Part shown: piece by piece, positions 7,800 through 8,015 of the stretch
How the letters are laid out: the number at the start of each line of letters is the position of its first letter
Numbering within the stretch: the first letter of the stretch is position 1
NCBI RefSeq assembly: GCF_029232205.1
Contig: NZ_CP107255.1
Span: 870,001-902,000, forward strand
Length of the DNA stretch: 32,000 nt
Reading direction: 5' to 3'
DNA from: Candidatus Saccharimonadota bacterium
Lineage (GTDB): Archaea; Nanohalarchaeota; Nanosalinia; Nanosalinales; Nanosalinaceae
Position numbers and translations under genes: made by a program
The notes under the pieces: generated by a model
The model's database searches: none
The model's input: the letters and a program-made list of their open reading frames with translations, nothing else
What the model was told of the DNA's origin: nothing

Positions 7800-7850
7800 A
7801 AGGCATTATCAAAATGCCTTAAGCTTGATCGAACTTAGCTTGTAAGTTCG
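7800..7850 (+). other. two perfect 8-bp hairpins (AAGGCATT-ATCAA-AATGCCTT at 7800-7820; CGAACTTA-GCTTG-TAAGTTCG at 7830-7850)
   Basis: Read directly from the sequence. They form part of a chain of five stem-loops preceding tRNA-Leu. Confidence 0.5.
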
Positions 7851-7883
7851 CCGGGGTAGCCAAGTTAATTCTTGCCAACCCCG
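7850..7883 (+). repeat. exact 16-nt copy of the tRNA-Leu(UAA) 5' end (7850-7865 = 7933-7948), folded back on CTTGCCAACCCCG
   Basis: GCCGGGGTAGCCAAGT occurs twice, 83 nt apart. The upstream copy pairs with 7871-7883 in 11 of 13 positions, with A.A and C.C mismatches. Confidence 0.75.
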
Positions 7884-7932
7884 AAGCCATGCACAGCATG
7901 GCCTATTGCGTATCAATCGAGCGCAACCAATT

Positions 7933-8015
7933 GCCGGGGTAGCCAAGTGGCCAAAGGCGCAGGACTTAAGATCCTGTCCCGCAGGGGTTCACGAGTTCAA
8001 ATCTCGTCCCCGGCA
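7933..8015 (+). tRNA. tRNA-Leu(UAA), class II
   Basis: Acceptor GCCGGGG/CCCCGGC, D-arm GCC-AAGTGGCCAAA-GGC, anticodon arm CAGGA-CTTAAGA-TCCTG, long variable arm CCCGCAGGGGTTC, T-arm ACGAG-TTCAAAT-CTCGT, discriminator A. Confidence 0.9.

Follow-up and report, generated by a model that had tools for sequence, protein, structure and literature searches.

The origin of introns, splits and permutations in archaeal tRNA genes is a long-standing question, and few intermediates are known. Disrupted tRNA genes have already been reported in DPANN archaea (PMC5829648). Here, we describe the leader of a tRNA-Leu(UAA) gene on a 32,000-nucleotide (nt) stretch of contig NZ_CP107255.1 (hereafter the window; GTDB lineage Nanohalarchaeota), in which the first 16 nt of the tRNA also stand upstream of it as an exact copy, followed by a segment complementary to that copy. 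We refer to this arrangement as a cassette and compared it with about 740 kb of syntenic nanohaloarchaeal loci, labelled L001 and so on. We give an even chance to the reading that positions 7850 to 7932 form a dispensable, intron-like leader cassette that would be transcribed and then removed by RNase P, and in which a pseudo-5' end is masked by its own complement. A masked copy of a tRNA start is apparently an undescribed way of disrupting a tRNA gene: the literature that we searched holds no account of leaders and trailers that carry masked copies of tRNA ends as a conserved family, in agreement with an earlier annotation of the locus (the sequence-only reading), which knew of no such element.

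Among the closest described systems are the repeats of archaeal integrative elements (SSV type and pNOB8 type, and the 5' tRNA-Thr fragment of Caldiarchaeum subterraneum), in which a direct repeat of a tRNA fragment likewise stands beside an intact tRNA and may correspond to its 5' terminus (PMC3293823). The same study proposes a link to intron gain. In the cassettes, by contrast, the repeats measure 14 to 17 nt and lie 46 to 87 nt apart, the interval contains neither an integrase nor any other gene, and the fragment is paired with an adjacent complement that tracks the tRNA. The design recurs at several families of tRNA, with conservation across genera. Non-canonical bulge-helix-bulge introns of DPANN and TACK archaea also place an extra hairpin-rich segment, with a complement to the neighboring exon, at the D-loop position; the cassette differs in having no splice motif at its boundaries and in being followed by a complete tRNA.

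Ordinary pre-tRNA leaders, which are removed by RNase P, share with the cassette a position upstream of +1 of a complete tRNA. Because the TATA element of this lineage lies about 35 nt from +1, its typical leaders span only a few nucleotides, whereas the cassette leader is 85 to 190 nt long and contains five hairpins and a copy of the 5' end of its own product. Attenuators resemble the cassette in having four segments (here the copy, the arm, the real 5' end and the acceptor 3' strand) that permit two mutually exclusive pairings (1:2 plus 3:4 versus 2:3), but the two states of the cassette are unequal in energy, there is no evident terminator or effector, and a tRNA follows rather than an mRNA. 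Finally, replication template switching (quasipalindrome mutagenesis and duplication-triplication/inverted-duplication [DUP-TRP/INV-DUP] rearrangements) produces the same direct-inverted-direct order of one segment as sporadic mutations, whereas the cassettes are inherited, homologous across genera and fixed for their mismatches.

Copies of the tRNA start at two tRNA-Leu genes of the window

The 16-mer GCCGGGGTAGCCAAGT is found at 7850 to 7865 and again, with 16/16 identity, at the start of the tRNA (7933 to 7948), and the gap between the two repeats measures 67 nt (Table 1). Downstream of the copy, TAATT (7866 to 7870) leads to the antisense arm CTTGCCAACCCCG, which pairs with the copy at 11 of 13 positions, the mismatches being A9.A and C11.C. 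The copy, this partial complementarity and the four other hairpins (7800 to 7820, 7830 to 7850, 7886 to 7902, and 7906 to 7926) had been pointed out in the sequence-only reading. We confirmed the copy and the complementarity by direct reading and the four hairpins base by base, and all four recur in the minimum free energy (MFE) structure from RNAfold. Hairpin 4 has a stem of 5 base pairs (bp) and a loop of 11 nt. The MFE structure of 7780 to 8020 comprises five hairpins and the cloverleaf at -88.2 kcal/mol (z = -4.8; none of 200 shuffles was as good). ARAGORN and Rfam RF00005 placed the tRNA at 7932/7933-8015/8016, with 61.9 bits against a threshold of 29.

Across the window, the 16-mer has two exact and two near matches where 0.06 is expected (0 of 100 shuffles equaled this), and the two near matches belong to an equivalent arrangement at tRNA-Leu(GAG). 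Five perfect hairpins of at least 8 bp occur in the window against 3.5 expected, and three of the five stand in the two tRNA-Leu leaders. Hairpin 2 has a stem identical to that of the first intron hairpin of L005 and L018.

The cassette at tRNA-Leu(GAG), which was absent from the sequence-only reading, is double. Its 16-nt copy (in module B) sits 55 nt 5' of the tRNA, with an 8-nt copy (in module A) another 52 nt upstream, and the last two bases of the hairpin at 31351 to 31367 are the first two of the 16-nt copy. The latter is followed by TGATT and then by the arm GCCAACCCTC, which shows the same two mismatches as the copy:arm hairpin of the UAA gene (hairpin B) and has T and C opposite A4 and G3 of the tRNA. 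In L128, the GAG gene retains module A alone, and its hairpin (GAAACTCT/AGAGTTTC, against GAAGATCT/AGATCTTC in the window) differs by two compensatory pairs. L129, L130, and L132 show a plain promoter-to-tRNA arrangement.

A tRNA search (Rfam) of 7850 to 7932 gave no match even at E values of up to 10, and the segment is thus neither a second tRNA nor a recognizable pseudo-tRNA. The sequence-only reading also raised the idea of an independent small RNA; an Rfam scan of the leader returned only noise (best hit snoR101, 13.3 bits against a threshold of 40). With regard to a box C/D guide RNA embedded in the pre-tRNA, inspection by eye found no C (RUGAUGA) or D (CUGA) boxes in 7866 to 7932 or 31382 to 31420. 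Two further candidates were rejected. In the case of a decayed mini-tRNA (positions 1 to 16, a D-loop remnant and the acceptor 3' strand), the GAG cassettes have TGCCAA, although their D-loop has TGGTCAA, and the arm does not copy the real 3' strand but is the Watson-Crick complement of the 5' strand. In the case of a tandem duplication of leader plus start, the sequence 5' of the copy is unlike the insert.

Table 1. Features of the tRNA-Leu(UAA) and tRNA-Leu(GAG) leaders, in window coordinates
Feature	Positions	Strand	Remarks
TATA-like promoter element TATTAAAC	7741-7748	+	directly 3' of the stop codon (7736-7738) of a small conserved open reading frame (ORF)
Hairpin 1, AAGGCATT-ATCAA-AATGCCTT	7800-7820	+	in an insertion of about 75 nt missing from the L079 ortholog
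Second TATA-like element CCTTAAGC	7817-7824	+	its TTAA begins 31 nt 5' of the copy
Hairpin 2, CGAACTTA-GCTTG-TAAGTTCG	7830-7850	+	within the lineage-specific insertion; last G is G1 of the copy
Pseudo-5' end, exact copy of tRNA-Leu(UAA) positions 1-16	7850-7865	+	0.06 expected by chance
Antisense arm CTTGCCAACCCCG	7871-7883	+	pairs with copy positions 3-15 to give hairpin B (7852-7883), about 15.6 kcal/mol
Hairpin 3, GCCATGC-ACA-GCATGGC	7886-7902	+	compensatory change in L079
Hairpin 4, TTGCG-TATCAATCGAG-CGCAA, plus CCAATT	7906-7932	+	abuts tRNA position +1; single difference from L079
tRNA-Leu(UAA), complete, intron-free	7933-8015	+	ARAGORN, Rfam
Module A	31314-31365	+	8-nt copy of the tRNA-Leu(GAG) start, GCGAGGGT (31314-31321); perfect hairpin 31323-31341; hairpin GCAAATC-TAT-GATTTGC (31351-31367)
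Module B	31366-31420	+	exact copy of tRNA-Leu(GAG) 1-16 (31366-31381); antisense arm GCCAACCCTC (31387-31396); tail CCAAAAAC...AAACAGAT
tRNA-Leu(GAG), complete	31421-31503	+	ARAGORN, Rfam

Recurrence, inheritance and promoter spacing

Among 123 tRNAs, a sample biased toward the few tRNA genes near rpoD, 27 have a copy of at least 10 nt of their 5' or 3' end within 300 nt. Module B (copy, short loop and an arm of the CTTGCCAACCC type) precedes tRNA-Leu(UAA) in L004, L005, L012, L018, and L079, tRNA-Leu(CAA) in L037 and L070, and tRNA-Leu(GAG) in L020, where it is the ortholog of module B in the window. Analogous cassettes stand at Gln(UUG) in L012, L015, and L029, at Gln(CUG) in L031, and at Ser(UGA) in L037 and L039. 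A metagenome scan contributed one genuine extra instance (L070), the eight remaining loci being unrelated, and a search of contig P0008 (L127) found no tRNA-Leu on it. The antisense arm tracks its own tRNA: it carries CCCCG/CCCGG for GCCGGGG tRNAs, CCCTC/CCTCG for GCGAGGG tRNAs, and TACAC.CAGGG for Gln.

Other families follow the same plan. In the tRNA-Gln leaders, which can be aligned across four deep lineages, the copy is accompanied by an inner hairpin that is conserved (ACGCAGAT..ATCTGCTGG) and by an arm with complementarity to Gln positions 5 to 14. Module A of tRNA-Ser(UGA) consists of a 9- to 10-nt copy and a GCGAAACTCG..GAGTTTCTG hairpin; the module A core is nearly identical between the tRNA-Leu of L012 and the tRNA-Ser of L039. 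Mirror-image 3' modules lie 50 to 120 nt downstream of tRNA-Leu and tRNA-Ser genes in L004, L005, L006, L007, L031, L038, and L070. A GGTATTTGAT-like complement of the T-loop is followed in them by a GAAGCTCC..GAGCTTCG hairpin, which they share, and by a 21- to 24-nt copy running from the T-loop through the tRNA 3' end, with an oligo-T trailer. In the minimum-energy fold of L070, the outer 5' copy pairs with the outer 3' copy around the whole tRNA. Complementarity to the tRNA start was rejected as a general leader trait of the lineage, as cassette-free genes had a mean longest match of 3.6 nt against 3.4 nt in shuffles. The decoy and antisense strand described in the sequence-only reading are thus a real, non-random design, and its recurrence at a second tRNA gene of the window and at those of related genomes argues against a one-off accident.

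We also compared the UAA cassette with its orthologs. One lineage, with an RpoD 83% identical to that of the window, is represented by four independent metagenome assemblies; three of them (L079, L080, and L082) carry an orthologous UAA leader with a 15-nt copy and the arm CTTGCCAACCCGCG, and the fourth contig stops before the tRNA. Hairpin 3 of L079 reads GCCATAC-TAG-GTATGGC, that is, one compensatory G-C to A-T change and a different loop. In hairpin 4, CGCAA has become CGTAA, which gives a G.U pair on the sense strand; the TATCAATCGAG loop and the CCAATT tail are identical. Overall, 7903 to 7932 shows only two differences from L079 and is better conserved than the surrounding non-coding sequence. 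Hairpins 1 and 2 are missing from L079 and are therefore attributed to a later insertion of about 75 nt; the comparison also indicates that hairpin 2 arose by the addition of a complement to a pre-existing neighboring sequence.

In a neighbor-joining tree of S4, S11, and RpoD, the clade is patchy, with the cassette present in the window and in L079 and missing from L001, L002, and L083. The sequence-only reading had counted absence from close relatives, coupled with the lack of a transcript over 7850 to 7932, as evidence against its proposal. Three close relatives (L001, L002, and L083) do lack the cassette, but that of L079 is present and orthologous. Decayed cassettes occur in L008, L028, L029, and L032, and the L029 copy has diverged from its tRNA yet still pairs with its arm. 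Taken together, orthology, patchy presence and decay indicate that the cassette is old, dispensable and unstable.

These comparisons also bear on a purely mutational origin, in which template switching at a heavily transcribed gene would generate the arrangement and palindrome-correcting errors would keep the stems perfect without any selection. The order of copy, inverted copy and copy is the product of a double template switch, hairpin 2 was formed by the addition of a complement to adjacent sequence, and perfect hairpins are concentrated in tRNA leaders. We nevertheless consider such a by-product very unlikely: the cassettes are homologous across phylum-level divergence and are not independent fresh events, the same two arm mismatches have remained uncorrected in nearly all Leu cassettes (the exceptions being L037 and a variant in L004), and G.U changes are tolerated on the sense strand only.

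We then determined how the cassettes lie relative to promoters. In the sequences preceding 119 nanohaloarchaeal tRNA genes, TTAA is most frequent at -37 to -30. Of 13 cassette genes, 9 have a TATA-like motif at -31 to -41 from the first copy, and most cassette genes have no TTAA between copy and tRNA. The TATTAAAC motif follows the equivalent small ORF in L001, L002, L079, and L083. Its distance from the copy is 33 to 34 nt in L079 and 109 nt in the window, the latter owing to the insertion of about 75 nt, and CTTAAG at 7819 now stands at -31 from the window copy. Cassette-free orthologs (L129, L130, and L132; L001, L002, and L083) hold the promoter at ordinary spacing. A promoter at normal tRNA distance from the copy suggests that the copy occupies the place of the tRNA start, with the remaining cassette inserted behind it, and the copy probably begins the primary transcript. 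A sigma-70 promoter scan of this region of the window found nothing, the model not being applicable to archaea.

Folding, maturation and the origin of the copy

We compared the energies of the competing folds of the UAA leader and tRNA. The local state, with the copy:arm hairpin and the cloverleaf, has -65.5 kcal/mol, the swapped pairing has -59.8 kcal/mol, and a state without hairpin B has -49.9 kcal/mol. The local state thus beats the swapped one by 5.7 kcal/mol, and the local hairpin would form first during transcription. The bistable processing or maturation switch envisaged in the sequence-only reading is not borne out by these values, the swapped fold being both less stable and kinetically disfavored. 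In line with this, the hallmarks of a riboswitch or attenuator are missing from the leader: the folds are not similar in stability, no terminator-like site was found on the + strand, no Rfam regulatory family matched, and no ligand pocket or known motif was found.

Based on these findings, we propose the following course for the leader cassette. An insertion or duplication would have entered the tRNA-Leu(UAA) gene just downstream of the original start, either by local duplication-inversion or as the remnant of an insertion or integration. Transcription would begin a few bases 5' of the copy, from CTTAAG at 7819 or from TATTAAAC at 7741. The copy would fold immediately onto the antisense arm, and the decoy, once hidden, could not draw the acceptor 3' strand and the D-stem partner away from the real 5' strand. 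RNase P would cut between 7932 and 7933, and the whole leader would be discarded; all five RNase P proteins have been reported for Nanohaloarchaeota (PMC4919917), which makes cleavage at this position the simplest maturation route. Once gained, the cassette would decay, and recombination between its two 16-nt repeats could remove it. It is one of a family of masked tRNA-end copies flanking tRNA-Leu, tRNA-Gln, and tRNA-Ser genes across Nanohaloarchaeota.

Several points weigh against this course. Whereas the anatomy, the recurrence, the orthology, the promoter spacing, the lack of a splice motif and the fold energies are observed, we infer that the leader is transcribed, where transcription starts, that RNase P cuts it off and what then becomes of it, as well as the masking role of the arm and the way in which the cassette arose. 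The hairpin loop of the UAA group, which is TTAAAT, TTAAAC, or TTAATT in 5 of 6 UAA lineages, is itself TATA-like and lies at promoter distance from the tRNA in L005 (-36) and L008 (-37). In these two, the copy may be upstream of the start site and never transcribed, and the promoter used may differ between lineages of the UAA group. The copy is exact in about ten lineages, although a tolerated decoy should decay, and the two arm mismatches are identical in the UAA genes, the GAG genes and one of the two CAA genes; this calls for either gene conversion by the real 5' end next to it or an unrecognized function. Covariation in hairpin B is weak, since the tRNA 5' end hardly varies: among few sequences, 90.9% of cells are paired, two-sided changes affect only 2 pairs, and 64 of 500 shuffles equaled this. 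Compensatory changes in perfect palindromes can, moreover, arise by templated correction at the DNA level, without selection on the RNA. Lastly, the copies on the 3' side carry the oligo-T trailer and are located past the first terminator, and at least those copies thus look like DNA-level relics.

An unrecognized function could take the form of selection on the hairpin that the tRNA's own 5' end provides, a broader version of the switch put forward in the sequence-only reading. It might act as a maturation checkpoint in which the arm traps the real 5' end, as a binding site for a factor that recognizes tRNA 5' ends, or, in the UAA group, as a palindromic operator centered on the TATA box. Such control would fit the exactness of the copy amid randomized flanks, an arm that is nearly invariant and has its two mismatches 4 bp below the loop, and the conserved loop itself. 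It would likewise fit the matched changes in copy and arm of the GAG genes, the two differences in 7903 to 7932 and the drifted L029 cassette that still pairs. Since the nearest relatives and most orthologs do without the cassette, however, it is not essential, and the cost of the swapped state, the lack of a terminator, ligand pocket or known motif in the leader and the non-significant covariation all speak against control. We regard this explanation as rather unlikely.

The sequence-only reading had also entertained a long intron with ambiguous boundaries. We scanned for bulge-helix-bulge motifs at the required offsets (83 nt for UAA; 55, 52, or 107 nt for GAG), defined as two 3-nt bulges on opposite strands with a 4-bp helix between them and an excision that leaves the mature tRNA. 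The scan recovered the genuine D-loop introns of L007 and L026 with correct spliced products. In the window leaders it found no motif at the required register, the best candidate having 2 of 4 central pairs. With no splice motif and a complete tRNA downstream, the segment would act as a 5' leader and not as an intron. An unconventional variant, in which the first copy is exon 1 and the splicing endonuclease removes 7866 to 7948 at a relaxed motif, strikes us as extremely improbable, even though the copy stands at tRNA-start distance from the promoter, true repeat-flanked D-loop introns (one with the antisense motif) exist in the lineage, and DPANN endonucleases with an L3 loop are associated with increased tRNA gene disruption (PMC5829648). 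No motif appears at the 83-nt or 55-nt register even if just 2 of 4 central pairs are required, RNase P alone suffices for a tRNA that is already complete, and the copy:arm hairpin would place the junction in its loop.

A further suggestion was that the copy is an attachment (att)-type repeat bounding an integrated element. A direct repeat of part of the tRNA is indeed present, but a search of the 32-kb window found no further copy of the 16-mer and no distant partner repeat at up to 3 mismatches, and neither an integrase nor any other gene of a mobile element is among the ORFs near the window loci. For a matching attP, three pattern scans of IMG/VR gave chance coding hits only, in a collection in which nanohaloarchaeal viruses may be poorly represented and with plasmids not searched. 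The scan with TAGCCAAGT...GCCAACCC gave 29 matches, all due to chance and in coding DNA; those with the 3'-module core and the Gln-leader core gave nothing relevant. Distant partner repeats of tRNA ends among the sampled loci were Gln paralogs, with the exception of one element in L039.

That element (L039:15160-17590) is a classical integrated element at tRNA-Glu and serves as a contrast. It has a direct repeat of about 52 nt of the tRNA-Glu 3' part 2.3 kb downstream, a 99-amino-acid ORF that resembles an integrase N-terminal domain (by eye only) and a 362-amino-acid ORF on the opposite strand.

An integration scar would nevertheless explain much of the anatomy, and we hold it to be unlikely but deserving of weight. 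The copy would be a displaced attL-type fragment from an element that integrated in the 5' part of the tRNA and has since been mostly deleted; the recombinase core site would consist of copy, 5- to 6-nt spacer and arm, with the shared inner hairpins representing the element ends. Partial direct repeats of tRNAs are a signature of archaeal integrative elements, with 5'-end targeting described for the tRNA-Thr fragment of Caldiarchaeum (PMC3293823), and nanohaloarchaeal spindle viruses encode tyrosine integrases (bioRxiv 10.1101/2025.02.15.638363). The classical case in L039, the occurrence of the same inner hairpin cores beside different tRNAs in different genomes, the trailer carried by the 3' copies and the likeness of 13-bp arms around a 5- to 6-bp spacer to a tyrosine-recombinase core site point the same way. 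The distances do not: a full-length (14- to 16-nt) Leu copy always lies just 32 to 72 nt from the tRNA, and no element stands between the 5' repeats, nor between the 3' repeats within 300 nt. No integrase lies near either window locus, and no matching attP appeared in the three viral scans. Moreover, the arm follows the tRNA's own sequence, the stems show compensatory changes, and the copy site has a different spacer from the real tRNA site, although a crossover region should be the same in both.

D-loop introns and the neighborhood of tRNA-Leu(UAA)

The lineage also contains tRNA genes that are interrupted in the D-loop. Two tRNA-Leu(UAA) genes (L007:8731-8925 and L026:3592-3818), both mis-called by ARAGORN, have two introns each, a D-loop intron (51 and 79 nt, respectively) and a long canonical one. 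Their D-loop introns are flanked by a GGCCAAA direct repeat, the GGCC palindrome of which forms the central splice-motif helix GGCC:GGCC, with AA^A as the bulges (in L026, AG^A on the 3' side). A third case, tRNA-Gln(UUG) at 257 to 360 (+ strand) of the window, was missed by Rfam and by default ARAGORN and called tRNA-Pro by ARAGORN -i. Its D-loop is interrupted by a non-canonical intron of 31 nt (279 to 309) with the relaxed splice motif GGCC[AA^A]TACCTT...AAGGTA GGCA[AT^T]; the spliced product is AGTGGCCAATCATAGCGG, as in intron-free orthologs, and TTAAGA lies 36 nt upstream. Many genes here escaped the standard tRNA finders, and the number of tRNAs in these genomes is therefore probably underestimated.

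Canonical anticodon-loop introns of nanohaloarchaeal tRNA-Leu, tRNA-Ser, and tRNA-Gln are unusually long (47 to 143 nt; examples are L005:11944-12150, L004:4746-4943, and L020:20409-20566). They are chains of short perfect hairpins (CGAACTT..AAGTTCG, GAAAATC..GATTTTC) that resemble the leader hairpins.

A direct repeat of the GGCCAA(A) type flanks the D-loop introns of L007, L026, and the window tRNA-Gln, and the L026 intron includes GATTGCCAAGCCC, the antisense motif of the cassettes. The 9-nt core of this motif, TGCCAA[C/G]CC, occurs 16 times in 1.5 Mb, and 11 of the 16 occurrences are in tRNA-Leu leaders or the L026 intron. Leaders, introns and trailers of the lineage have short hairpins of the GAA...TTC type in common. 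D-loop introns flanked by direct repeats, one of them with the antisense motif, suggest a link between the cassettes and intron gain or loss, and the two look like related outcomes of one type of event, an insertion in the 5' part that duplicates neighboring exon sequence.

A bolder extension of the leader reading sees the cassettes as a living transitional stage that links an intact tRNA gene with a gene that has a non-canonical intron, the masked pseudo-exon perhaps also being functional; we consider this quite unlikely. The duplicated exon end and the inserted hairpin would first be tolerated as a leader, and a GGCC-type palindrome would then supply the splice motif, yielding a D-loop intron, or the process would run in reverse. 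Retention of the pseudo-exon might reflect a role as a checkpoint of maturation or as a decoy that diverts elements targeting tRNA genes. Plain genes, leaders with masked copies, decayed cassettes and repeat-flanked D-loop introns form a graded series within this lineage, partly within one genome. If the cassettes are such intermediates, the series would make a route of intron birth or death in archaeal tRNA genes directly observable.

The gene order around the locus is rps13, rps4, rps11, rpoD, a small conserved ORF, tRNA-Leu(UAA), an S-layer-like gene with three others, rpl18e, rpl13, and rps9. RpoD (6898 to 7467) has its closest relatives in Candidatus Nanohaloarchaea; a look-up of the exact protein returned no record. 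The small conserved ORF (7631 to 7738, + strand), between rpoD and the tRNA promoter, ends in ...PEKASGFKTAAEI* and has homologs in L001, L002, and L079. Its first start codon in the window gives only 35 amino acids, although no stop codon interrupts the frame upstream to at least 7451; gene calls for the equivalent region in relatives give 160 amino acids (61 or 52 in the L083 group). Between tRNA-Leu and rpl18e lies a block of about 4.8 kb (8335 to 12762, + strand) that encodes a 152-amino-acid membrane protein, a very acidic S-layer-like protein of 796 amino acids (PF05124) and two ORFs without family matches. Relatives have a 950-amino-acid protein at this position.

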